Shown: one piece after another, positions 3,657-48,740 of the stretch
Layout: every line of letters begins with the position of its first letter
How positions within the stretch are numbered: the stretch's first letter is position 1
DNA from: Escherichia phage vB_Eco_F27
Sequence record: OP870146.1
Reading direction: 5' to 3' (one strand)
DNA length: 64,000 bases
Made by a program: the position numbers and the translations under genes
The notes under the pieces: model-generated
Seen by the model: only the letters and a program-made list of their open reading frames with translations
Databases searched by the model: none
What the model was told of the DNA's origin: nothing

Positions 3657-4452
3657 AGGACATCCAACACATTTTATAACCTTTGCAGGTTCTGTTAGGA
3701 TTATTTAATGCTTTCAATATATTAGAAGACCCTATATCTAAATACTCCCTTAATTCATAAAGATAGTTAAAATCAATAGTTTCACCTGTTTTTACACTTG
3801 TGATTCTTATAGGCCTTCTTTCATATTTAGATTTATACAACTCTCTAGTCTTAGCTTTAGTTTCTTCCGACCTAGGAGTGTATGGTTTAAATCCTTTTGT
3901 TTTAAATGTTTCCATTCTTGATTTAGTTATTTTATCCTGGTGTTCTTTTGTTTTTACAGGTGCTTTTCGCCCATTCTCCCAAGATAACTTATTGGCCTGT
4001 ATTATTTTATCTATTGCTTCTTGCGTATGAGTTTTACCATAAAATGGATTTAATTCGCCTATACGTTGTGAAGCAATATGTGACATTAATTCTCTTGTTG
4101 CTTTAGTATGTTTTTTACCTTTAAATGGGTTGCCATTTTTAGCAATCCATTCTTTCATAAATCTAGAGTGCTCTTTAGAGAATTCTTGTTTAAGCCAATC
4201 ATAATCTCTAGAATTTCTAGCTCCCATGTAAAAAGCTCTAATAGCCATAAGCATAGAACGGTTCTTATGAATTTTATAAAGCAATAAATGGGCGATAAAA
4301 TGCTCTCTAGGGGTCAATTTAACTAGATTTGATTTAGCATTACTCCCGCCCATAGATTTTGGCAATATATGATGTGTCTCAGTATAATTAGGAATAATGC
4401 TGCGGTTTTTAGCCGCAGCGATAAGTTTATCATAAATTTTACGATAATTCAT
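3655..4452 (-). CDS. HNH homing endonuclease with NUMOD3-type DNA-binding repeats
   Basis: HHILPKSMGGSNAKSNLVKLTPREHFIAH HNH motif; repeated GNPFKGKKHTKATRELMS / NPFYGKTHTQEAIDKI modules; start may be 4467 or 4452. Confidence 0.75.
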   Translation of the reverse strand: MNYRKIYDKLIAAAKNRSIIPNYTETHHILPKSMGGSNAKSNLVKLTPREHFIAHLLLYKIHKNRSMLMAIRAFYMGARNSRDYDWLKQEFSKEHSRFMKEWIAKNGNPFKGKKHTKATRELMSHIASQRIGELNPFYGKTHTQEAIDKIIQANKLSWENGRKAPVKTKEHQDKITKSRMETFKTKGFKPYTPRSEETKAKTRELYKSKYERRPIRITSVKTGETIDFNYLYELREYLDIGSSNILKALNNPNRTCKGYKMCWMS

Positions 4453-24970: not shown

Positions 24971-25519
24971 TTAACGAGCCCATTTGATAATTTCTGTAAT
25001 CAAATAATTACGTTCGCTTGCATTAAATCCTATAACTTTGTTAGCACCATCATGATTAAGTAATTGATACGTTTGGATTTTGTTATGAATTGCAAACTCT
25101 TCAAAATGTGAAATGACTGTATTAAAACCGAATGAAGACAAAGTAATAAGGTCGTCTTCAAAACTTTCAGTCATTTCGTTACGTGTTAAAATAATTGTGA
25201 ACACATCATGGTTTTGGCAAAGACGAACATAATCCTGCTCATAAACATCAAGAACAGAGTCCGCATCTTGTCGAATACGTCCATAAACCCAGTTACTAAT
25301 ATATCCACGGTCTAACAGATAAATCTTAGTAGGGTCTAAATAATTCAACATCGTTTCGAAACAACCAACTTCGTTTCGAGACTTAACATCGAAACGTCCA
25401 TCAACCGTTCGTTTAGGGAAATCAATCTTTACATATCTTTCACTAATTTCCATTATGTCATTAATGAAAGTTGTTTTACCAGCATTATCCGGGCCATCTA
25501 CTAAAATAATTTTAGCCAT
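24971..25519 (-). CDS. P-loop nucleotide kinase, thymidylate-kinase-like
   Basis: Walker A ILVDGPDNAGKTT; LLDRGYISNWVYG resembles Tmk DRY/S motif; occupies the slot where T4 has beta-gt. Confidence 0.55.
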   Translation of the reverse strand: MAKIILVDGPDNAGKTTFINDIMEISERYVKIDFPKRTVDGRFDVKSRNEVGCFETMLNYLDPTKIYLLDRGYISNWVYGRIRQDADSVLDVYEQDYVRLCQNHDVFTIILTRNEMTESFEDDLITLSSFGFNTVISHFEEFAIHNKIQTYQLLNHDGANKVIGFNASERNYLITEIIKWAR

Positions 25520-25520
25520 T

Positions 25521-26420
25521 TTATTCCTCGATTACAACATCTTCGTATTTAGGTATATTATACGGTGAAGAAATTAAAGCATTAAAGTAGATGAACTCAC
25601 CAAGACCTGGATGGAATACTTCTTCAGGATTTTCGAAATATTGAATCTTCGGACGTCCTTTAAGAATTTGATAGTACTCAGTTTTAGTTGGTTTAAAAAT
25701 TCGAATCAACGCTTCTTCAGGATACTTATTTCTGTCGAAGCTATTATTTGGATCGGTTATATAAAGCGGTTGACCTAATTGAATTGCGCATTCAACCACT
25801 TGTTCAAAACGATAGCATGGGTCACTAATTCGAAATGGATGAAAAATACCATCTAGATGAATAGGAGCCAAATCACCTACAAGACGCTGCATGATGGAAG
25901 GACGTATAACTTTCTGCGTTACGATAATCTTATTACCATCTGCACCAGCGTTAACCAGCACTTCTTTTTGACGTTCATTCAACACAGTAGTTTGAAGTGA
26001 ACGATTAACCGACAACATATCGGTTTTTAAGAATTCGTCAATATAAAAACGTGGTTTATTAGGGTCTGCAGTGATATTGAAATTGAATTCCACATCAAAA
26101 GCGCCGTCATATCCAGTGATATCTGTGATTAGAAAATCACAATCATAATAAGCAATTAATGAATCAACCACAAATTCATTTTCAGACCAGAAATATTTAC
26201 GAGTGTTATACGCGTTATCTTTATACCATAATGGAACAAACTTAAATTCTGGGAAAAGACGTTCACATTCTTTAATATCAGATGCATTACGTGGATATGT
26301 AATCACATCACCCGGATTAGCACGGTGCAAATGAAGTTGGAAGTTGCCATCCTTAAGGATAGCATACTGTCCAGTTTCATAAGACCGCATACTCAAAATA
26401 GGTACGCGGAAAATAGCCAT
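25521..26420 (-). CDS. hypothetical protein (candidate modification enzyme)
   Basis: 299 aa, no recognisable motif; in operon with gene 42 and Tmk-like kinase. Confidence 0.45.
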   Translation of the reverse strand: MAIFRVPILSMRSYETGQYAILKDGNFQLHLHRANPGDVITYPRNASDIKECERLFPEFKFVPLWYKDNAYNTRKYFWSENEFVVDSLIAYYDCDFLITDITGYDGAFDVEFNFNITADPNKPRFYIDEFLKTDMLSVNRSLQTTVLNERQKEVLVNAGADGNKIIVTQKVIRPSIMQRLVGDLAPIHLDGIFHPFRISDPCYRFEQVVECAIQLGQPLYITDPNNSFDRNKYPEEALIRIFKPTKTEYYQILKGRPKIQYFENPEEVFHPGLGEFIYFNALISSPYNIPKYEDVVIEE

Positions 26421-27136
26421 TAGTCAAGGAATCCTTTAACATAATCAAAATCACGTTCAAACACATGGGCACTTACCATGGTATGAGTATAATCACCAAC
26501 TTCTACACCGCATTCGTTAGCGATATAATGAAGTAATTTTCCTTGGAGATAAAAATCCAACTGCATAACAACAGCACAGTTCTGAGAACGCATATGACAA
26601 TGGGTATAAAGCTTACCATCACGAATATAATAAGTCACTGAGTCAGTACATGGATATTCAAGCGTTTCGTCTGAATCAAGCAAAGCCTGATCAGAACTTT
26701 CTAGAATTTGGAACACAACTCTTCGGGAGTTAGGCTTCTCTTTAAGTTCTTTTAGAAGAGCTGGTAATTGGGCCGCAATGCGAGGACCATAGAAAGTGTT
26801 GAAGTTCGCCGGCAAAACATCTGATTTTGGTTTAGAAATAAATTTAGCGACATTAGGATATGCCTTAAACGCTTCTTCTGCGTTGGTACCACCAGAAATC
26901 ATAAACTTCCAGAAGTCTTCGGCATATTCATAAGAGATGCGGTTAATACGTGGGTCGGTCATTTTGAATGATGATGGAGTGTCAACAACTACTGTCATAG
27001 ACCCAATTTCATTACAACGTCCAATACGAGAATCAGTTACGAATTCCGGGTTTTCTAAAATTTCACGATTGACTGCTTTAAATGCGGTTTGAAAATCTGC
27101 GGCTTTGATATATTTCATTGTGTTATGTTTTCCCAT
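26420..27136 (-). CDS. 42: dCMP hydroxymethylase (thymidylate-synthase superfamily)
   Basis: PCTDSVTYYIRDGKLYTHCHMRSQNCAVVM...HTMVSAHVFE matches the TS-fold active-site block (catalytic Cys, MRS, D); 238 aa close to T4 gp42 size. Confidence 0.8.
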   Translation of the reverse strand: MGKHNTMKYIKAADFQTAFKAVNREILENPEFVTDSRIGRCNEIGSMTVVVDTPSSFKMTDPRINRISYEYAEDFWKFMISGGTNAEEAFKAYPNVAKFISKPKSDVLPANFNTFYGPRIAAQLPALLKELKEKPNSRRVVFQILESSDQALLDSDETLEYPCTDSVTYYIRDGKLYTHCHMRSQNCAVVMQLDFYLQGKLLHYIANECGVEVGDYTHTMVSAHVFERDFDYVKGFLD

Positions 27137-27178: not shown

Positions 27179-27418
27179 TTATTTGAATTTCTTGACAATG
27201 TTGATATAACGTAAAGCTTCAGCATCGATACTTCCAAGAACACTATGAAGAAATGCATCAGCGTAGTATTCCAATTGAACAGGTTCTTTAATCACTTTAG
27301 CCGCTTTAGTTTCAAACAGGCCCATCAGGGCCTTTTTAAGAATTTGTTCATTAGTGTTCAGTTTAATAGTCAAAATCTCTTCATTAAGTTGGTGGTTAAA
27401 AGTTTTTCTAGAAATCAT
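27179..27418 (-). CDS. hypothetical protein
   Basis: 79-aa ORF between Cys-rich enzyme and gene 42. Confidence 0.45.
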   Translation of the reverse strand: MISRKTFNHQLNEEILTIKLNTNEQILKKALMGLFETKAAKVIKEPVQLEYYADAFLHSVLGSIDAEALRYINIVKKFK

Positions 27419-28575
27419 TCCGGGTACCTCAAAGCGTCATCAGAGTTAGTTATATCAATAATAGATATAGAGTTTTCTGCTAACCCGTTTTTAGATAATT
27501 GACGTTTATAATATCTTTCACAATATGTACACGTCGTCCCGCAGATTTCATTAGCACAATCGAAATCTGGATGTCTGAACCACCTTTTTTCTAAAAAGCC
27601 ATCTAACAAAGAGGTTTCAATATTTACTGTATGTGAAAACTCGGTCTCATTTTCAAGAGTGAAAATAGTCTCTAAAGGCTTCCACAGTTCTAACAAATTA
27701 CCTTCAAACTTTTCAGAAGCGTATGCTTCAAGAACTTTCAAAATGTAGTCTGTGCTACCTGTACGTCCTGAAACTTTGAATTGAGTGATACCAATATCAT
27801 TATAAAGTTTCAAATCTTGAGGACGAACAAAACGAGTTCTCAACCAGTTAAATGGGTCTGTATCACGAGCTTTAATGCAGTGTTGCATTGGGTATCCGTT
27901 TAAGGATTTAGCATCATCAGCTGTAACATCAGTACTATGGAAAATATAGCAAGAGTCACGATAGCTACAATGTGTTGTATACCCTTTACCAGCATTAGAA
28001 CAGAACTCATTTACAAGAACTTCAAATATTATATTGTTCTTATTGCAAAACTCTGCTGCACGCTTCAGGAAAGAAACTGAACGGTTCTTATGAATTCCAC
28101 AGCAGACCTTTTTGATATTATATTGGTCATGCAAGTATTTGATTTGAGTTACAGCATCGACATGTAGAATTGTTGAAACTTCAATCTCAATGTCTTTATT
28201 GACTTCACGAACAATTTCCATAACAACAGGGTTAGCGATAGTAATACGCCATACGCCTATTGACCAAAGATACTGAACATAATCCTGAATAGCTTTCTTC
28301 TTCCACTCAACTAGTTCTCTTTTTGAACCAGGATTTATCGTGTTGAGTGTATAGTTAAAGCAAATACCTAATTCGTTACAACGTTTAACGTAATCTTCTA
28401 ACATCTTTTTGTCAACGTCAGGAAGCCTAAAATCAGGTCTGGCTGCTACAAAAGCCATTTCTCTTGTAGAGCCGTATACTTCGTTTATCAAGCTATTAGG
28501 ATAAGTTTTATTGAGCTCTACGATTTTATCAAGAAGAGCTAAATCAAAATTCGTTCCGATTTTAAAAGTATTCAT
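27415..28575 (-). CDS. Cys-rich hypothetical enzyme (possible Fe-S/metal cluster protein)
   Basis: 386 aa; FCSNAGKGYTTHCSYRDSC and C-terminal CANEICGTTCTYC (Cx4Cx3Cx2C); faint resemblance to peptidase-U32/TIM-barrel family. Confidence 0.45.
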   Translation of the reverse strand: MNTFKIGTNFDLALLDKIVELNKTYPNSLINEVYGSTREMAFVAARPDFRLPDVDKKMLEDYVKRCNELGICFNYTLNTINPGSKRELVEWKKKAIQDYVQYLWSIGVWRITIANPVVMEIVREVNKDIEIEVSTILHVDAVTQIKYLHDQYNIKKVCCGIHKNRSVSFLKRAAEFCNKNNIIFEVLVNEFCSNAGKGYTTHCSYRDSCYIFHSTDVTADDAKSLNGYPMQHCIKARDTDPFNWLRTRFVRPQDLKLYNDIGITQFKVSGRTGSTDYILKVLEAYASEKFEGNLLELWKPLETIFTLENETEFSHTVNIETSLLDGFLEKRWFRHPDFDCANEICGTTCTYCERYYKRQLSKNGLAENSISIIDITNSDDALRYPE

Positions 28576-28634
28576 TTTTTTTTTGCATCTCGCGTTAATT
28601 GGTGCGATGGTTTTTGCAGGTCTTACTTAAATTA

Positions 28635-29036
28635 TTATAGATTCGGTTTATATGATTTAAATGTTTCGAATTCGCCTTTATTCATAAGAGCTTTGAATTC
28701 GTCAGGACGCATAGCTTTGTCGTCGATAATCCAATCATATACTGGTTTATGTGTTAGCAAATTATGGTACTTCAAGCCAATGTTTGCCAAGTTCTGAATC
28801 AGACTTGGGAGAATGTCAATTGCTATACGACCAGGACCTACTGACTTCATACCGCGAGCAGTGTAAAGCGTTATGGTATGCCCTGCATCATACAGAGCAT
28901 TAATGGCAGACACCATTTCGACGTCTGGTTTGAAGTTCACGTAATCACGATTGTTATTCCACTCTGTTATACAATCATCGACATCAAAACAAAGATTAAG
29001 CATGTTTTCTACACGGTGCATTAGATTCGTTCCCAT
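28635..29036 (-). CDS. small HAD-family phosphatase, KdsC-like
   Basis: Motif I FDVDDCIT (same spacing as KdsC FDVDGVLT), motif II TLYTAR, Lys and terminal DD motifs. Confidence 0.6.
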   Translation of the reverse strand: MGTNLMHRVENMLNLCFDVDDCITEWNNNRDYVNFKPDVEMVSAINALYDAGHTITLYTARGMKSVGPGRIAIDILPSLIQNLANIGLKYHNLLTHKPVYDWIIDDKAMRPDEFKALMNKGEFETFKSYKPNL

Positions 29037-30706
29037 TGATGAGTGATATCGCCACCGATTGGACGATAGGAAACACCAGTTTCTTTATCAGTTAGTACCC
29101 ATTTACCAGGATTTTTTGTAATCAGAGTAGCCGTTACAGGTTCTGCTACGTCATAACTAATAGAGCCGTCTTGAAGTACACGGCCCATATTACGTAATTG
29201 CTTAGTCAGAAGTTCCATACCTTTATAATATGCGGCTACCGCTTTAAGTGGATTATTCTTGAAATAACCACCTAATGCAATCCAGATAATTGCCACTGCC
29301 AAATGATGATACTCGTTAAACGAACTCATCTTTCCATATTTGTAAACTAATGGATTGATGTTAATAGTCACATTACAAGTTGTTTCATCAATAGTAAACT
29401 GTCCCCAGGTCGGATTAGCGTTGAATTCATCATAACCTGAAACAGCATAAAGCACTTTAGCTTCATCATACAATTTTGGCCCGTAAATCTTTGTTTCGCC
29501 AAAATATCCACGAGGGTCGATAAATTTGACTTCGCCGTTATCAGTAATCATAGTATTACTGAAGTTCGGGTCACCATGAATAACAGAGTACTGTCCCTGA
29601 GAACGGTTATGATAACGAATAAGGTGTTCTAAAGCTTGTTTCAGCATTGGCTTCAGACGTCCAATCTTAGTGTAGTTCACATGTGTGATTTTACCAAATG
29701 AATCAATCAATGGTTGAATGCTTTCACAACGATCAATAACTTTCGTATAGAATTCTTTAGTGAAATCACGACGAACAGTTTCAGGACTTACAAAATAAGT
29801 GTCTGTGCTGAATTTCAGTGCATCTAAAATTGCATCAACAATTTGTGGACGAGCAAGACTTGATTTGGATTTAATATATTCAAATGCCGGCTTACCTTTA
29901 ATGCGTTCCATTTCAAAGTTATTTTCATTAACAGAAACTAACTGAGGGACTGAATCTGATTTCACTTTCAAATACCACGAAATCTCATCTTTCTGAAGAG
30001 CTCGGCCCTGTTCGGTTAATGCGAATTTAGTTACAGTTTCTTCACCAATTTCAACTGCATTAAAACTACGATTAAGTTCACGAACTTCATGAGCTTTTTC
30101 AAGTTTAGGCATATCACCTAAATCAATTAGATTCATAAGCTCTGATTTATTGAATGCGCTGGCGTAAAGGAATTCTACGAAATCACGTCCTTTGCAGTAT
30201 TCATGAATTTCCTCATCGGTAGAACCCATATAGAATTCCCAGTCTTTGAACTGATAAATTCCTACAACATTACCACCTGTTGAACCTACGTTAGTGATAT
30301 TTTCACCGTCGAAATTATATCGACATTCGTCACCCTTAACATAGATTGCGTTAACATTCCAAGACCATGAACCAAAATCAGGAATAATATCACACCAGTT
30401 AACAATTACGTTATGGCCGTCTAAATCTTTGTGTAATTTAGCAAGAGCATAAGCAGAACCATACGCTTCATCAACTGTACGAATAGTCACATTGAACCCT
30501 TCTTGCTCACAATAAGCTCGAACAGTTTCAGCAAATTTTGAATGAACTACTACAATAATTTCATCTGCGCCAAGGTCAGAATAAATTGTATACAAATTGC
30601 TCAGAATAGTGTCTTGTTTATAGTTAACAAGCACCTTAGGAATATGATGCGTTATTGGATATAAACGAGTTGCCAATCCAGCACCAAGAATAACAGCTTT
30701 TTTCAT
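29021..30706 (-). CDS. bifunctional sugar-1-phosphate nucleotidyltransferase / APH-type sugar kinase
   Basis: N-terminus ILGAGLATRLYPIT..PKVLV (RmlA/GlmU-type G-x-G-T-R-L); C-terminus HGDPNFSNTMITDNGEVKFIDPRGYFG (APH/choline-kinase Brenner and DFG-like motifs). Confidence 0.7.
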   Translation of the reverse strand: MKKAVILGAGLATRLYPITHHIPKVLVNYKQDTILSNLYTIYSDLGADEIIVVVHSKFAETVRAYCEQEGFNVTIRTVDEAYGSAYALAKLHKDLDGHNVIVNWCDIIPDFGSWSWNVNAIYVKGDECRYNFDGENITNVGSTGGNVVGIYQFKDWEFYMGSTDEEIHEYCKGRDFVEFLYASAFNKSELMNLIDLGDMPKLEKAHEVRELNRSFNAVEIGEETVTKFALTEQGRALQKDEISWYLKVKSDSVPQLVSVNENNFEMERIKGKPAFEYIKSKSSLARPQIVDAILDALKFSTDTYFVSPETVRRDFTKEFYTKVIDRCESIQPLIDSFGKITHVNYTKIGRLKPMLKQALEHLIRYHNRSQGQYSVIHGDPNFSNTMITDNGEVKFIDPRGYFGETKIYGPKLYDEAKVLYAVSGYDEFNANPTWGQFTIDETTCNVTININPLVYKYGKMSSFNEYHHLAVAIIWIALGGYFKNNPLKAVAAYYKGMELLTKQLRNMGRVLQDGSISYDVAEPVTATLITKNPGKWVLTDKETGVSYRPIGGDITHQWERI

Positions 30707-30747: not shown

Positions 30748-30891
30748 CTAGTTAAAGCATTCATACTTTGCTTGTAGTCCAATCATAATCCATCCAATTA
30801 CAAGTGTTGGAATCATTACTGGAGCCGTTAAGCTCCAGTAGATAGTCATGACAAGCATCAATAGTAAAAGTCCTATTGTTATTGCTTTCAT
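30748..30891 (-). CDS. small membrane protein
   Basis: 47-codon ORF not in track (MKAITIGLLLLMLVMTIYWSLTAPVMIPTLVIGWIMIGLQ...); ATGA overlap with SIS gene stop. Confidence 0.4.
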   Translation of the reverse strand: MKAITIGLLLLMLVMTIYWSLTAPVMIPTLVIGWIMIGLQAKYECFN

Positions 30892-31523
30892 TGCTCGCCT
30901 CGTAACATGGCACCTAGTGCACCACCTGGATGGAACTTAAGGAAATCATTAGAGGTAAATCCACGTTCAGACGAAAGGTTGATAGCAAACGTATCGATAA
31001 GCGCTAACAACAATGTAGTGGACATAGTCGGAGCCAGAGAATTCTCATCAACCTCTACTGCGATGCCTGCACAGAAAGAATAATCAAAAAGGGCTTCATT
31101 TTCTTGTGGAATGTCCGGGTTACAATGCAACAGAATCTGTTTGACGTTCGGTCGAATCATTTTAAGATGCTTAGCCACGCCTATCATTTCTTCAGTTTTA
31201 CCAGAACGACTAATATGAATCAACACGTCATTAGGCGCAATAAATCCTGCATCACCGTGAGAATAATGCCCAGTGTTCAAGTACATACTCGGGATACCGA
31301 GTGAAGCAAATGTCTCAGAAGCTTTAGTTGCAATATTAGCATTCTTACCAACACCTGTAATAATTACACGACTTTCATAATTACTCAGTCCCGGGCGTCG
31401 AAGAGTTTCTAGAATAGCATTATAACGAGCAGGGTTTTGACTAATTACTTTGGCCATAGCGGCCAAAGAAGAAGCTTGTTTTATGATTGCGTCAATAGCG
31501 ATAGTAATAGGAGTAGTTTTCAT
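30888..31523 (-). CDS. SIS-domain sugar-phosphate isomerase, arabinose-5-phosphate isomerase (KdsD/GutQ)-like
   Basis: VIITGVGKNANIA ... HGDAGFIAPNDVLIHISRSGKTEE ... APTMSTTLLLALIDTFA ... FHPGGALG match SIS motifs. Confidence 0.75.
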   Translation of the reverse strand: MKTTPITIAIDAIIKQASSLAAMAKVISQNPARYNAILETLRRPGLSNYESRVIITGVGKNANIATKASETFASLGIPSMYLNTGHYSHGDAGFIAPNDVLIHISRSGKTEEMIGVAKHLKMIRPNVKQILLHCNPDIPQENEALFDYSFCAGIAVEVDENSLAPTMSTTLLLALIDTFAINLSSERGFTSNDFLKFHPGGALGAMLRGEQ

Positions 31524-45411: not shown

Positions 45412-45882
45412 TTAATCATGTTTCCACACCCCATCGGTATTTGACCAAAGTCGCTGATTATCTGATCCTCGCCACAGCTTTTTAGTCGGAAGATTTTTCT
45501 CATACTTCCCATCAATAATAACATCAACATATTTAAGCATTTCTAGTTGTTTAATATCTTCAAACTTATATCCTGTCCACAACCAAATGCTTTTATTGGG
45601 ATAAAGATTTTTTACTGTTTGAACAATGCAATGAATAACATCTCGGTTATCAGGATAGAGAGGGTCACCTCCGGTTATAGTTAATCCTTCTATATAATCA
45701 TTATTCAAACATTCAATTAATTGTTCTAGTGTTTCACCAGTGAATGGAACACCATTTCTAGCATTCCATGTTGATTTATTATAACACCCTTCGCATTTAT
45801 GCAAACAACCCGTAACGAAAAGAACGACCCTGCATCCAGGGCCATTCACAAAATCGCAAGGATAAAATCTATCATAATTCAT
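45412..45882 (-). CDS. nrdG: anaerobic ribonucleotide reductase activating protein (radical SAM)
   Basis: CLHKCEGC CxxxCxxC motif near N-terminus; 156 aa. Confidence 0.93.
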   Translation of the reverse strand: MNYDRFYPCDFVNGPGCRVVLFVTGCLHKCEGCYNKSTWNARNGVPFTGETLEQLIECLNNDYIEGLTITGGDPLYPDNRDVIHCIVQTVKNLYPNKSIWLWTGYKFEDIKQLEMLKYVDVIIDGKYEKNLPTKKLWRGSDNQRLWSNTDGVWKHD

Positions 45883-47158
45883 TGGTGTTTAACCCTATGC
45901 ATGATTTCTTTATTTTTACCGAGATTAAATCCGCGTTCGTTCGGATTTCCCAAATAACCACATGTTCTTCTTATTGTGTTCATCTTTTTAGGATCAGTTT
46001 CTCCACAAATAGAACAAACAAATCCGTTTTCAGTAGGAGTCATTTCATGGGTACTTCCACATGTAAAACATTTATCTACTGGCATATTAACACCAAAATA
46101 ATCTAAATGTTGTGCAGCATAATCCCATACGGCCTCAAGGCCTTTCAAGTTATTTTTCATATCAGGAAGTTCAACATAAGAAATGTGACCACCTGTCGCA
46201 ATGAAATGATATGGCGCTTCACGAGAAATCTTTTCAAACGGAGTAATATTTTCTTCTACTGAAACATGGAAACTGTTAGTGTACCAACCTTTATCGGTAA
46301 CATCTTTTACGCTTCCATATTTTTCTGTATCAAGTTTACAGAAGCGGTAACAAAGGTTTTCAGCAGGAGTAGAATACAAACTAAAAGCAAATCCAGTTCT
46401 TTCGGACCACTGTTTAAGATGAGCATTCATTTTAGTTAAAATTTCTTGCCCAATATCACGACCGACAAGAATATTCAATTCGTGAATACCAATGTATCCT
46501 AAAGACACTGAACTTCTACCGTTTTTAAATAACTCAATTATGTCGTCATCAGGTTTAAGACGAACCCCGAATGCACCTTCTTGGTAAAGAATAGGAGCAA
46601 CAGTCGCTTTAACACCCTTTAAAGAACTAATTCTACACATCAAGGCTTCAAAACACAGATCCATTCGTTCATTAAACAATTCGATAAATTTCTGTTCATT
46701 GAACTGTGTTCCAATATAAGAATCTAATGCGATACGAGGAAGATTCAGTGTTACAACACCAAGATTATTACGTCCATCAAGAATTTCATTACCGGTTGAA
46801 TCTTTCCACACACTCAAAAAACTGCGGCAACCCATTGGAGAAACAGGAATAGATGAGCCGGTGATAGCTTTATTGTTCTTAGCTGAAATAATATCAGGAT
46901 ACATTCTTTTGCTTGCACATTCTAACGCAAGTTGTTTAATATCATAGTTCGGATCATCTTTATAAAGATTAACACCTTCTTCAACAAACATAACAAGTTT
47001 AGGAAAAATAGGAGTTATTCCATCACGACCAAGGCCTTTAATGCGGTTTTTAAGAATTGCCTTCTGAATCATTCGTTCAGTCCAGTCAGTTCCCGTACCA
47101 AATGTAATTGTTACAAAAGGCGTTTGACCGTTTGAACTGAAAAGTGTATTTACTTCAT
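45879..47158 (-). CDS. nrdD: anaerobic ribonucleoside-triphosphate reductase, exon 2
   Basis: C-terminal glycyl-radical motif RRTCGYLG and Zn site CFTCGS...CSICG; joins exon 1 to give 605 aa. Confidence 0.88.
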
Positions 47159-48202
47159 CATTATATTCAGCATGAGTCGCAAATTCATGCCCGTTTATAT
47201 GAAACAACAAAATTTGGATAGTCCATAGATATGCAACGTTCTTTTATAGTGCTAGGATGAAAATTTAGCGCTTTAGCTGCTTCTATATAAGACGTATACT
47301 TAATACCGTCAACAACCACATATTCAGGAACTTTATGAATAGTAGTCTTAATACTCAAAACAAGAGGATGAGTTTCGACTTCACTTTCAGTGCAATTTAA
47401 ATATTCCGCTGCTTTTTTAAAACTTCTAAAAGTTTTATTTTTAAGCTTTATCGATACTTGTTTTTTACTTTTTCGACTATTGATATTATTTTGCACATGT
47501 TCCTTAGATCTTCCGTTTTTAGCATAATATTCAGCTACAGAAGATTTTATATTGTTTTTATGAGATTCGGATAACACTTTACCCTTATGAGCATCTCTTA
47601 ATTTTTGAATATGTTCTTCAGTATCCGGATGCTTATAAAACTTTTTACCGCCTATGGATTTATTTAAACATTTTTTGCTATAAAAATATTTACGTATGAC
47701 CTCTTCTTCATGTTTTAATGCATCTTTATAACTATCAAATGTTTTTAAAATTATCCATTTAGTAGGTGTATCAGTTTTTAAGCGTTCATTTATATACTTA
47801 GATGACGTTGTGTAAGTTTTCCAGTTTGTGGGCTTGTTTTTAATTGTTCTAAATTTTTTATAACCGATATAAATGTCGCCATTAGAAAACTTAACTAAGT
47901 ATGTAAATGCGTCTTTATCTTTTATTTTAGTACAACGTCTTTTATCCATTTCATTGTTTCACCTCGTATTCATAAGATAATCTTATTTATACAAGATGAC
48001 TGCTGCATGTCGCCATGCAGATTAGACTATATCTTCATCTTTCGATGCCGGTCGTTTCGAATAGCATTAGCTTCTATTCTACACCGCTACATTCATCACG
48101 GTTAGTCGTTAGGCATTTAGTTCAAAAGAACATTTAGCACGGGATTGTCTACTAGAGAGGTTCCCCGTTTAGACCGGTTTTACATGAGCCTGAATTAAAT
48201 TA
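47159..48202 (-). mobile_element. group I self-splicing intron in nrdD carrying a homing-endonuclease ORF
   Basis: nrdD frame interrupted for 1044 nt; exon 1 ends in U, intron ends in G; joining restores ...AFQAYE-YEVNTLFSS...; untranslated structured segment 47950-48202 then HEG ORF. Confidence 0.8.
47185..47949 (-). CDS. GIY-YIG homing endonuclease (I-TevII-like), intron-encoded
   Basis: N-terminal TYLVKFSNGDIYIGY GIY-YIG module; basic C-terminal DNA-binding repeats; lies inside nrdD intron. Confidence 0.75.
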   Translation of the reverse strand: MDKRRCTKIKDKDAFTYLVKFSNGDIYIGYKKFRTIKNKPTNWKTYTTSSKYINERLKTDTPTKWIILKTFDSYKDALKHEEEVIRKYFYSKKCLNKSIGGKKFYKHPDTEEHIQKLRDAHKGKVLSESHKNNIKSSVAEYYAKNGRSKEHVQNNINSRKSKKQVSIKLKNKTFRSFKKAAEYLNCTESEVETHPLVLSIKTTIHKVPEYVVVDGIKYTSYIEAAKALNFHPSTIKERCISMDYPNFVVSYKRA

Positions 48203-48740
48203 ACTCATACGCCTGGAACGCGTCATAGACATCTTTTTCTGTTTTAGATTGAGCATAATTCAACGCATCAGCGATTTGCCATTTTTCTGCATCTTCAACA
48301 TGTTTAGCGTATGTGCGTTTAACATAAGGAGAAAGTACTTTATCGACATTCGCAAATGTAGTTCCGCCATACTGGTGTGAAGCAACTTGTGCAGTAATTT
48401 GTGCCATAATTGCAGTAGCAACGCCAATAGATTTAGGCGTTTCAATTTGAGCATTGCCTAATTTAAATCCATTCTCAAGCATCCCCTTTAAATCGACCAA
48501 ACAGCAATTAGTAAACGGAAGAGCAGGAGAATAATCAATATCATGCATGTGAATGATTCCGCTTTCATGCGCATTCATAATAAAAGACGGGACCATATTT
48601 TTGGCAATGTGCTTAGACACAATACCAGCCATAAGGTCCCGTTGAGTTGGAAAAACACGAGAATCTTTATTAGCATTCTCGTTCAAAAGATCTTTATTAG
48701 TTTTATGAATTAATCCTTCAATTTCTTTTTCAATTTTCAT
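48203..48740 (-). CDS. nrdD: anaerobic ribonucleoside-triphosphate reductase, exon 1
   Basis: MKIEKEIEGLIHKTNKDLLNENANKDSRVFPTQRDL...; in-frame stop 2 codons after splice point. Confidence 0.88.

Follow-up and report, generated by a model that had tools for sequence, protein, structure and literature searches.

A phage U32-family protein as a candidate oxygen-free route to the 5-hydroxycytosine of sugar-modified DNA

The open reading frame at 27,415..28,575 (minus strand, ATG start, 386 aa) of Escherichia phage vB_Eco_F27 (OP870146.1; the window, i.e., the whole analysed stretch, comprises 64,000 nucleotides) is equivalent to RB69 gp50 and appears, judged from its sequence, to be a member of a distinct viral subfamily of U32-family iron-sulfur enzymes. 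The gene neighbours found in many phages suggest that U32 gives this RB69-like phage an oxygen-free way to the 5-hydroxycytosine under its DNA sugar modification. Our preferred reading, to which we assign a probability of roughly 60%, is that the protein acts as a prephenate-dependent, O2-independent C5 hydroxylase, i.e., as an anaerobic back-up for 5-hydroxy-dCMP synthesis.

With regard to family membership, the Pfam search of the ORF yields a Peptidase_U32 match (PF01136) of 42.2 bits against a gathering score of 22.4; its envelope spans residues 94-286, i.e., the TIM-barrel core encoded at 27,718..28,296 (minus strand). PHROG 5757 aligns with the protein end to end, and copies at least 80% identical are found in 221 phage records, such that the statement of the earlier note that there is no obvious homolog is wrong. 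Among RB69-like records, 152 of 153 carry a U32 that is at least 99% identical, which suggests that the sequence is under constraint in these phages. The protein shows the TIM-barrel fold of the Mk0906 (5D88) type. The structural-homology check that had been proposed for this ORF returns a U32 barrel as best match and not a radical SAM enzyme, while a PDB search with the protein sequence gives no match at E<=1. The sole NCBIfam match at E<=1 is UbiU with 18.5 bits, compared to a cut-off of 440, so the NCBIfam models place the phage protein in none of the characterised subfamilies (UbiU, UbiV, TrhP, RlhA). Around it lies a separate large U32 subfamily with 1712 cluster representatives at E<=1e-3.

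The ORF encodes 13 cysteines (3.4%). Both cysteine clusters quoted in the earlier note are present, and the cysteines it picked out are the conserved ones. The first cluster, FCSNAGKGYTTHCSYRDSC, covers residues 191-209 (C192, C203, C209) and the second, DCANEICGTTCTYCERYY, residues 339-356 (C340, C345, C349, C352; Cx4Cx3Cx2C). In a close-family alignment of 111 homologs (identity down to 47%, mean column identity 50%), nine cysteines are invariant, namely C158, C192, C203, C209, C233, C340, C345, C349 and C352, and E185 is at least 90% conserved. Within the wider family, represented by 131 full-length representatives of 50%-identity clusters, C233 is retained in all 131 and C192 in 129, the four C-terminal cysteines are kept in 109-115, and about 25 show G/H in place of C203/C209. 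C158 (28,102..28,104, minus strand) is found in only 72/131 of them, and in an alignment with the E. coli U32 members UbiU, UbiV, RlhA and TrhP nothing corresponds to it. As read from these alignments, the conservation pattern is far beyond chance.

Two putative metal sites can be proposed from this pattern. The invariant U32-domain cysteines C192, C203, C209 and C233 (27,877..28,002, minus strand) are putative [4Fe-4S] ligands, and the C-terminal C340/C345/C349/C352 (27,520..27,558, minus strand), invariant in all 111 sequences, may form a second metal site, either [4Fe-4S] or zinc. In the alignment with the E. coli proteins, phage E185, C203 and C209 correspond to E161, C169 and C176 of RlhA. 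There, both cysteines are essential, E161A restores merely a trace of ho5C, and the C-terminal cysteines C580/C611 are required as well (PMC5727448); C169/C176 of UbiU are cluster ligands (PMC6747719). The canonical four-cysteine motif of the family, CX6CX15CX3/4C, ligates a [4Fe-4S] cluster (Pelosi 2019, PMC6747719), whereas the four invariant cysteines of the phage domain are spaced CX10CX5CX23C and only one pair, C203/C209, aligns. The experimentally defined ligand pair of the family thus aligns with the first cluster and not with the C-terminal CxxxCxxC highlighted in the earlier note, whose likeness to radical SAM is superficial.

The ORF was correctly placed within a modification operon: the operon is tight and all its genes lie on the same (minus) strand. 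On one side of U32 it comprises a 79-aa ORF (RB69 gp49, 27,179..27,418), whose start overlaps the U32 stop (ATGA), followed by the ThyA homolog (RB69 gp48, 26,420..27,136; Pfam Thymidylat_synt), a 299-aa DNA glycosyltransferase (RB69 gp46:47, 'arabinosyltransferase 1', 25,521..26,420; PHROG 3891, role from PMC13326640) and a thymidylate-kinase-like nucleotide kinase (RB69 gp45, 24,971..25,519; PHROG 761). On the other side are a HAD-type sugar phosphatase (RB69 gp51 / AfhF-like, 28,635..29,036; PHROG 1238, role from PMC13326640), a bifunctional nucleotidyltransferase and sugar kinase (RB69 gp52:53 / AfhE-like, 29,021..30,706; NTP_transferase and kinase-like matches), whose product is UDP-arabinose (PMC13326640), and an arabinose-5-phosphate isomerase (RB69 gp55, 30,888..31,523; SIS domain, JK45 annotation). 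Promoter and terminator scans gave nothing exceeding the shuffled expectation. The anaerobic ribonucleotide reductase NrdD/NrdG is also encoded in the window.

The ThyA homolog, at least 97.5% identical among the RB69-like records listed, is an O2-/flavin-dependent 5-hydroxy-dCMP synthase that uses FMN and O2, as seen by 18O2 labelling (PMC13326640). In RB69 virion DNA dC is undetected, and the modification pathway is pre-replicative and operates at the mononucleotide level (PMC13326640). In the literature that we surveyed, U32 is not linked to phage DNA modification, and no role for gp50 is discussed. A role of U32 in UDP-arabinose synthesis was rejected, since that pathway is complete without it and the sugar nucleotide is also produced by Acinetobacter phages, which have no U32.

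Since flavin and O2 allow the ThyA homolog to form this very nucleotide, the phage would have two parallel routes to it, with U32 serving in the absence of oxygen and the ThyA homolog in its presence; phage replication would then be possible in the anoxic gut. In the mechanism that we infer, U32 would hydroxylate C5 of cytosine without O2, most likely on dCMP and ahead of replication. Prephenate, supplied here by the host's PheA/TyrA and in most related phages by an adjacent phage chorismate mutase, would be decarboxylated and aromatised to phenylpyruvate, with its C4 oxygen passing to the pyrimidine C5. Electrons may travel via one or two Cys-ligated clusters, with C192/C203/C209/C233 as ligands in the U32 domain and C340/C345/C349/C352 as those of the C-terminal site. 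The resulting 5-hydroxy-dCMP would be phosphorylated, incorporated into DNA and arabinosylated by the glycosyltransferases of the cluster. Of the earlier suggestions, a metal-dependent tailoring enzyme comes close, i.e., the protein is very probably an Fe-S enzyme of the DNA-modification pathway, and its context points to a prephenate-using hydroxylase; the other one, an unusual transferase, is without support.

The prephenate connection is drawn from gene neighbourhoods. Of 11 non-RB69 T4-like loci that we read in detail, 10 have a gene for an AroQ chorismate mutase closely following U32, covering 10 host genera (Enterobacter, Klebsiella, Pectobacterium, Providencia, Yersinia, Proteus, Edwardsiella, Serratia, Escherichia with phage EcS1, and Shewanella). 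The gene scores above the Pfam gathering threshold for CM_2 and sits between U32 and the next gene, usually directly 3' of U32 with an overlapping start; four loci have a short ORF in between. The phage chorismate mutase occurs in 51 records, each time at the U32 locus, and profile comparison pairs it with AroQ mutases of known structure (1ybz, E 1.5e-17). In Thanatos-2, U32 and chorismate mutase have been relocated as a pair.

The RB69-like phages are all without chorismate mutase, and six-frame scans of the whole window found none. Its slot is held here by the 79-aa ORF, which we considered as a degenerate chorismate mutase and rejected: it has no CM_2 or NCBIfam match, scores about zero with the phage chorismate mutase HMM and reaches an hhalign probability of 0.2%. 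Its AF2 model (pLDDT 64, three helices) is too weak for a fold search, and its homologs, many of them truncated, are confined to RB69-like phages.

A comparable pattern is seen in a set of 33 distant viral contigs. In 12 of these, the gene next to U32 encodes a chorismate mutase, a DAHP synthase or both fused together. Among viral contigs with a U32 of only 45-55% identity, and with all flanking genes scoring above the Pfam gathering thresholds, U32 is flanked by fusions in L057, L059, L060, L061 and L071, by a stand-alone chorismate mutase in L063, L066, L068, L069, L072 and L074, and by a stand-alone DAHP synthase in L045 and L020. A reading of the DAHP_synth_1 neighbours as KDO8P synthases was dismissed (216-237 bits for DAHP synthase vs. 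63 for KDO8P; several are fused to chorismate mutase). We likewise discarded the idea that the chorismate mutase feeds CmoA/Cx-SAM carboxymethylation (PMC12783734): all genes of the cluster are otherwise assigned and none is annotated as CmoA.

The same distant loci also tie U32 to a hydroxylated base. The RB69 gp46:47 glycosyltransferase family is found in 23/33 of them, often overlapping the U32 start (hhalign 99.6%), and in uncultivated phages a glycosyltransferase of this type lies directly upstream of U32. A UDP-sugar enzyme is present in 16/33 and an A5P isomerase in 9/33 loci, while one locus (L021) has a TET-associated glycosyltransferase (TAGT) directly 3' of U32. Further neighbours are dNMP-kinase-like genes, dCMP deaminase, dUTPase, UDG and PolIII-alpha. 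The kinase family of RB69 gp45 (PHROG 761) occurs near U32 in metagenomic phage contigs, and one metagenomic locus holds two U32 paralogs. No ThyA-type hydroxylase is encoded within 6-10 kb on either side of U32 in any of the 33 loci.

We also compared the distribution of the two enzymes among phage records, where counts are not phylogenetically independent. The ThyA-type enzyme occurs in 373 records, including 57 from Acinetobacter and 20 from Rhizobium phages, and U32 in 221, for which the hosts listed are all Enterobacterales or Shewanella. Acinetobacter and Rhizobium phage records contain no U32, and where synteny would place the gene, Acinetobacter and Pseudomonas phages have nothing; for an O2-independent activity of U32, the absence from Acinetobacter and Rhizobium phages that carry the O2-dependent enzyme is indirect evidence. 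In about 40 records of Escherichia phages (e.g., Bp7, Dhakavirus) the ThyA-type enzyme is present without U32, which is thus dispensable for the modification as such.

These observations also bear on other readings of the gene. An alternative that we regard as unlikely keeps the chemistry and changes the substrate, i.e., U32 would hydroxylate cytosine in polymerised DNA or in dCTP as a post-replicative 'mop-up'. The characterised nucleic-acid U32 enzymes RlhA and TrhP do act on polymers, and at L021 the U32 gene occupies the place of the DNA-acting TET, the usual companion of TAGT. However, the undetected dC of RB69 virions and the pre-replicative, mononucleotide-level pathway point to a precursor, as do the recurrent dNMP-kinase-like, dCMP deaminase and dUTPase neighbours, and the phage protein lacks the domains that RlhA and TrhP carry in addition at their C-termini. 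That U32 is a redox helper, i.e., a sugar or heterocycle reductase or an Fe-S protein passing electrons to the flavin of the ThyA-type hydroxylase, we judge to be quite improbable. Here, the ThyA homolog is active in E. coli without U32, the gene is absent from Acinetobacter, Pseudomonas and Dhakavirus phages, the 33 distant loci have U32 with no ThyA-type enzyme nearby, and a redox helper would give no reason why chorismate mutase and DAHP synthase genes lie next to U32 again and again. The idea draws on Table 1 of Lee et al. 2026 (PMC13326640), where RB69p050 is labelled 'sugar or heterocycle reductase', on the nine conserved cysteines, possibly forming two clusters, and on the need of a flavoenzyme for a reductant.

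A phage copy of a TrhP- or RlhA-like RNA hydroxylase, tuning translation via tRNA or rRNA and unrelated to DNA modification, would fit the fact that RNA is the only nucleic-acid substrate proven in the U32 family; moreover, T4-like phages carry tRNA genes. We nevertheless deem it very unlikely given that U32 is embedded in and co-inherited with the 5hoC/arabinose operon, that distant phages couple it to a 5hoC-type glycosyltransferase and NDP-sugar genes, and that the protein is no UbiU equivalog and has no RNA-binding C-terminal domains. Hardly credible is the literal sense of the database name, a collagenase-like U32 peptidase with a protein of phage or host as its substrate. Many records are annotated as 'peptidase' or 'collagenase-like protease', but no catalytic mechanism has ever been established for U32 'peptidases' (PMC5727448), the members studied since 2017 are all linked to hydroxylation, and neither the invariant cysteine clusters nor the nucleotide, sugar and shikimate gene context fits a protease. 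We give equally little credence to a radical-SAM-like enzyme relying on the CX3CX2C near the C-terminus. While the spacing C345-x3-C349-x2-C352 is that of the radical SAM motif, Pfam reports no Radical_SAM (PF04055) match at E<=1, the motif is part of a short C-terminal stretch beyond the barrel, and the best structural match is U32. In addition, the fourth invariant cysteine, C340, would complete the ligation and fill the SAM site, leaving no open iron for SAM.

An anaerobic cytosine hydroxylase would matter in several respects. It was only in 2025-2026 that arabinosyl-5-hydroxycytosine DNA was elucidated, and its single known hydroxylase needs O2. The coliphages considered here, however, inhabit the anoxic gut and encode an anaerobic ribonucleotide reductase; a prephenate-dependent U32 hydroxylase would keep their DNA modified and replicable without O2. 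If this applied to the subfamily at large, phages of facultative anaerobes would have U32 beside the O2-dependent ThyA-type enzyme as a dual pathway, while in many uncultivated phages, including jumbo phages of 190-290 kb, U32 would be the only route to glycosylated DNA based on 5-hydroxycytosine; hundreds of such phages would be flagged as likely carriers of 5hoC-based DNA. The reading would also offer a reason for phage chorismate mutase and DAHP synthase genes, which some phages would import to feed U32. With regard to phage therapy, phages with and without U32 may differ at anaerobic infection sites. Whether the whole large, mostly viral subfamily consists of O2-independent, prephenate-dependent deoxycytidylate C5-hydroxylases is, in our estimate, an even bet; no U32 enzyme would have been known before to work on a DNA precursor, and no virus to have an anaerobic base hydroxylase. 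The 'organic oxygen donor' chemistry would thereby extend from RNA and quinones to DNA precursors, and dCMP, a soluble small molecule, would be a substrate suited to an in vitro assay, which research on U32 enzymes has so far had to do without.

Finally, we relate the phage protein to known systems. Prephenate-dependent hydroxylation is genetically established for RlhA (ho5C in 23S rRNA), TrhP (ho5U in tRNA) and UbiU/UbiV (ubiquinone). For UbiUV, prephenate is the oxygen donor, and in vitro reconstitution of the hydroxylase activity has been achieved for no family member (PMC10990095). Closest in product is RlhA (YdcP; 23S rRNA 5-hydroxycytidine-2501 synthase), which makes 5-hydroxycytidine and requires prephenate and Fe-S biogenesis (PMC5727448), i.e., its product is a C5-hydroxylated cytosine, as proposed for the phage U32. 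Both proteins share the cysteine pair and the glutamate, and both have further cysteines in the C-terminal region, which are essential in RlhA. RlhA, however, is a protein of 653 aa with a DUF3656 domain, and its substrate is the rRNA of ribosome precursors, whereas the phage protein has 386 aa and a deoxynucleotide/DNA-modification context; the C-terminal Cx4Cx3Cx2C segment of the phage protein cannot be aligned to RlhA, and the GxCxxxC part of the canonical motif is absent from it. Mk0906 (PDB 5D88), the only solved U32 structure found, has 247 residues, is 14% identical to the phage protein and contains nothing equivalent to the C-terminal cysteine segment of the latter.

The proposed division of labour has precedents in cells. 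TrhP is prephenate-dependent and a back-up of the O2-dependent TrhO (PMC6599085), and UbiU-UbiV stands likewise beside UbiI/H/F; in both cases, an O2-dependent and a prephenate-dependent hydroxylase yield one product over the whole O2 range. The phage pair would mirror both of these host systems, with the ThyA-type flavoenzyme in the O2 role and U32 in the prephenate role. These systems are cellular and act on tRNA and quinones, and UbiU-UbiV is a heterodimer working with UbiT, in contrast to the single U32 protein of the phage. Furthermore, the phage U32 is often coupled to its own chorismate mutase or DAHP synthase, while the E. coli ubiU/ubiV, rlhA and trhP loci that we read have no such neighbour. 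The ThyA-type 5-hydroxy-dCMP synthases (RB69 gp48, DLP3 gp80 and the HY126 enzyme) would share product and pathway position with U32, from which the window's copy lies two genes away, but they have an unrelated fold, depend on FMN and O2, and occur in U32-less phages of strict aerobes. Similar in layout are the phage TET/JBP and TAGT modules, where an oxidising enzyme makes a cytosine hydroxyl that a neighbouring glycosyltransferase decorates. TET enzymes require O2, Fe(II) and 2-oxoglutarate and convert 5mC in DNA to 5hmC, whereas the phage U32 would be O2-independent and give 5hoC.

The ORF at 27415-28575 (minus strand; 386 aa) encodes a protein that has the fold of the U32 family (Pfam Peptidase_U32, PF01136), belongs to it, and is 99.5% identical to RB69 gp50. 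An earlier note, made from the sequence alone, had described a cysteine-rich ORF with two cysteine clusters. This description is confirmed: the protein has 13 cysteines, the two clusters correspond to residues 191-209 and 339-356, and nine cysteines (C158, C192, C203, C209, C233, C340, C345, C349, C352) are invariant across 111 homologs down to 47% identity, i.e., the pattern is not due to chance. With regard to the wider family (131 full-length representatives), the best-kept positions are C192, C233 and the four C-terminal cysteines. In about 25 of these 131, the canonical pair C203/C209 is replaced by Gly and His, while the six positions just named are retained; this sub-clade may differ in how its cluster is arranged, or may be a non-catalytic partner.

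We aligned the protein with E. coli UbiU, UbiV, RlhA and TrhP. The U32 signature falls in the first cluster, i.e., E185/C203/C209 correspond to E161/C169/C176 of RlhA, where both cysteines are essential and E161A restores a mere trace of ho5C (PMC5727448); UbiU C169/C176 are [4Fe-4S] ligands (PMC6747719). Beyond this pair, the canonical CX6CX15CX3/4C motif cannot be aligned, and the phage family has the invariant C192 and C233 in its place (CX10CX5CX23C). The C-terminal Cx4Cx3Cx2C forms a second invariant four-cysteine site. The metal enzyme of the modification pathway proposed in the earlier note thus survives as a putative Fe-S enzyme of that pathway, but not as an orphan, since it is a recognisable U32 protein; the radical-SAM-like reading of its C-terminal spacing is not borne out. 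Among named U32 proteins no equivalog was found (UbiU match 18.5 bits, cut-off 440), and the phage protein belongs to a separate, large subfamily, with 1712 representatives of clusters at E<=1e-3 and 493 at E<=1e-30. Directly before its ATG lies a run of ten A (28576-28585), and no Shine-Dalgarno sequence is obvious there; in other genera, the annotated orthologs begin slightly further upstream, by a few codons (388-390 aa).

The region shows 99% DNA identity to RB69-like T4-type coliphages, e.g., JK45, APCEc01 and vB_EcoM_G2469. The U32 gene is part of a tight operon, all on the minus strand, in which it is preceded by genes for an A5P isomerase (30888-31523), a nucleotidyltransferase/sugar kinase (29021-30706) and a HAD phosphatase (28635-29036), and followed by a 79-aa ORF (27179-27418; RB69 gp49), a ThyA homolog (26420-27136), a 299-aa glycosyltransferase (25521-26420) and a kinase-like gene (24971-25519). 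RB69 DNA contains mono- and di-arabinosylated 5-hydroxycytosine (5hoC) and not hydroxymethylcytosine, and its ThyA homolog gp48 makes 5-hydroxy-dCMP by means of a flavin and O2, as found by 18O2 labelling (Lee et al., NAR 2026, PMC13326640).

All studied U32 proteins are tied by genetic and isotope work to O2-independent, prephenate-requiring hydroxylation (PMC5727448, PMC6599085, PMC10990095). RlhA forms ho5C2501 in 23S rRNA (PMC5727448), TrhP, alongside the O2-dependent TrhO, forms ho5U34 in tRNA (PMC6599085), and UbiU-UbiV performs three ubiquinone hydroxylations whose oxygen was traced to prephenate (PMC10990095); none of them has been reconstituted in vitro. The Discussion of PMC13326640 cites the RlhA and TrhP pathways and makes no tie to gp50.

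A prephenate source lies beside U32 in many T4-like phages. In the GenBank record of Enterobacter phage Entb_45, the small gene after U32 is annotated as chorismate mutase, and its product scores 40.9 bits against Pfam CM_2 (gathering score 27). In phages of Klebsiella, Pectobacterium, Providencia, Yersinia, Proteus, Edwardsiella, Serratia, Escherichia (EcS1) and Shewanella, the ORF that separates U32 from the following gene likewise exceeds the gathering score. The phage profile matches solved AroQ mutases over the full length (1ybz, E 1.5e-17). The gene mostly lies directly downstream of U32 (a short ORF intervenes in four loci) and occurs in 51 phage records (tblastn), every one at a U32 locus; record and neighbourhood counts, here and below, are raw and ignore kinship among phages. 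In Shewanella phage Thanatos-2, where U32 is relocated across the ThyA, glycosyltransferase and kinase genes, the mutase has moved alongside. Such a pairing is expected of a prephenate-consuming enzyme, since chorismate mutase makes prephenate.

In the window, the mutase slot of relatives is occupied by the 79-aa ORF, whose start overlaps the U32 stop (ATGA). Comparison by phage chorismate mutase HMM and hhalign rejects it as a mutase; the two are unrelated. Its AF2 model shows three helices at a pLDDT of 64. Found in RB69-like phages alone, the ORF diverges more quickly than U32 (81-97% identity) and is in many cases cut short to 47-58 aa. It may represent a gene in decay or a replaced one. 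In Klebsiella phage vB_KpnM_Clarke_MM3 (L003), which has the U32 most similar to that of the RB69 type (89% identity), the stretch from U32 to the ThyA homolog (3661-3705 of its locus) contains no ORF, which suggests stepwise mutase loss in this lineage.

U32 homologs of 45-58% identity were found on phage-like contigs only. A scan of IMG/VR gave 48 viral loci with ±10 kb flanks, 15 T4-like and 33 distant, some from contigs of 190-294 kb, whose neighbours we counted with custom HMMs. The ThyA-type 5-hydroxy-dCMP synthase is present in 15/15 T4-like and 0/33 distant loci, while the RB69 gp46:47 glycosyltransferase family (15/15 and 23/33) and the nucleotidyltransferase/sugar kinase (15/15 and 16/33) occur in both sets; chorismate mutase accompanies 13/15 T4-like loci, and A5P isomerase, tallied in the distant set only, 9/33. 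The gene immediately before U32 in five metagenomic contigs encodes a glycosyltransferase, and in three of them it overlaps the U32 start; its product is a homolog of the 299-aa protein of the window (hhalign probability 99.6%, E 1e-23). In 12/33 distant loci, U32 is flanked by shikimate-pathway genes, each passing its Pfam gathering score: DAHP synthase-chorismate mutase fusions (L057 8399-9430, L059 3-968, L060 7290-8354, L061 8323-9384, L071 11076-12194), stand-alone chorismate mutases (L063, L066, L068, L069, L072, L074) and a stand-alone DAHP synthase (L045). The fusion joins the first shikimate-pathway step and the prephenate-forming step in a single viral protein; some of these uncultivated phages have contigs of up to about 200 kb. 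L020, from a different collection and outside the 33, also has a stand-alone DAHP synthase (216-237 bits; 63 bits as KDO8P synthase, which was rejected).

Genes for dNMP-kinase-like proteins, dCMP deaminase, dUTPase, UDG and PolIII-alpha also recur near U32. Given these neighbourhoods, U32 is accompanied across very divergent phages by genes of prephenate supply, of deoxynucleotide metabolism, and of sugar-nucleotide synthesis and 5hoC-type glycosyl transfer; the distant phages have no ThyA-type hydroxylase nearby. In one locus (L021), a TET-associated glycosyltransferase (PF20691; 9098-10000) lies directly downstream; U32 there occupies the usual place of the TET dioxygenase, and the contig also encodes UDP-galactopyranose mutase and dUTPase/dCTP-deaminase.

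The ThyA-type enzyme occurs in 373 phage records, among them 57 Acinetobacter and 20 Rhizobium phages, and U32 in 221, all at ≥80% identity, with listed hosts all Enterobacterales or Shewanella. In one Acinetobacter and one Pseudomonas phage, the operon is syntenic and the slot between phosphatase and ThyA homolog is empty. About 40 Escherichia phage records likewise have no U32 (in Dhakavirus Bp7, the one read in detail, the slot is empty); U32 is thus accessory and not required for modification. The window also encodes a strictly anaerobic ribonucleotide reductase on the minus strand, i.e., NrdG (45412-45882) and an NrdD split into an N-terminal part (48195-48740) and a C-terminal part with the glycyl-radical domain (45879-47210) by a GIY-YIG/NUMOD1 homing-endonuclease ORF (47185-47949). 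The phage thus has the means to synthesise DNA anaerobically, a condition under which an O2-dependent hydroxylase alone would not be enough.

We therefore propose, with a probability of roughly 0.6, that the U32 protein acts as a C5 hydroxylase which depends on prephenate and not on O2, with dCMP as the likeliest substrate. It would form the anaerobic arm towards 5-hydroxy-dCMP, with the ThyA-type route as the aerobic arm to the same product; in the RB69-like lineage, prephenate would come from the host, the mutase slot being taken by the unrelated 79-aa ORF. The same chemistry on DNA or dCTP is a distinctly weaker candidate, the pathway working on mononucleotides before replication. A reductase or flavin-reducing partner appears improbable. 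It would agree with the label of gp50 in Table 1 of PMC13326640 ('sugar or heterocycle reductase', 5D88-like), its sole appearance in that paper and one without discussion, but would leave the shikimate-pathway neighbours without a reason. Marginally less probable still is a host-RNA hydroxylase, for which RlhA and TrhP are precedents; the phage genes around U32 concern deoxynucleotides and sugar transfer. A true peptidase, as the Pfam name has it, is very hard to reconcile with the hydroxylations known for the family, and a radical-SAM-like enzyme, to which the C-terminal cysteine spacing had pointed, is just as implausible for a protein with the U32 signature.

The searchable literature, with He et al. 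2026 and Mahler et al. 2025 outside that coverage, yielded nothing that connects U32 with DNA modification in phages. The gene is already annotated in >200 genomes, yet its function is undiscussed in the accessible literature.

In distant phage contigs, a radical SAM gene recurs a few kb from U32 (L016 1-249, L017 12160-13185, L022 5980-7011, L026 3972-5000), with a SPASM domain in 3/4 cases, and might encode a U32 partner or maturase. Two contigs carry, at a distance of 4 kb from U32, a further and divergent U32 paralog of 377 aa (L017 13227-14360, L018 8422-9555), whose neighbours are NT5C, a nucleoside deoxyribosyltransferase-like gene and a deoxynucleoside kinase. By analogy, such a pair may form a heterodimer like UbiU-UbiV or TrhP1-TrhP2. 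As for the second cysteine site of the phage protein, the C-terminal region of RlhA is not alignable with it, but RlhA likewise needs its C-terminal cysteines (C580, C611; PMC5727448).
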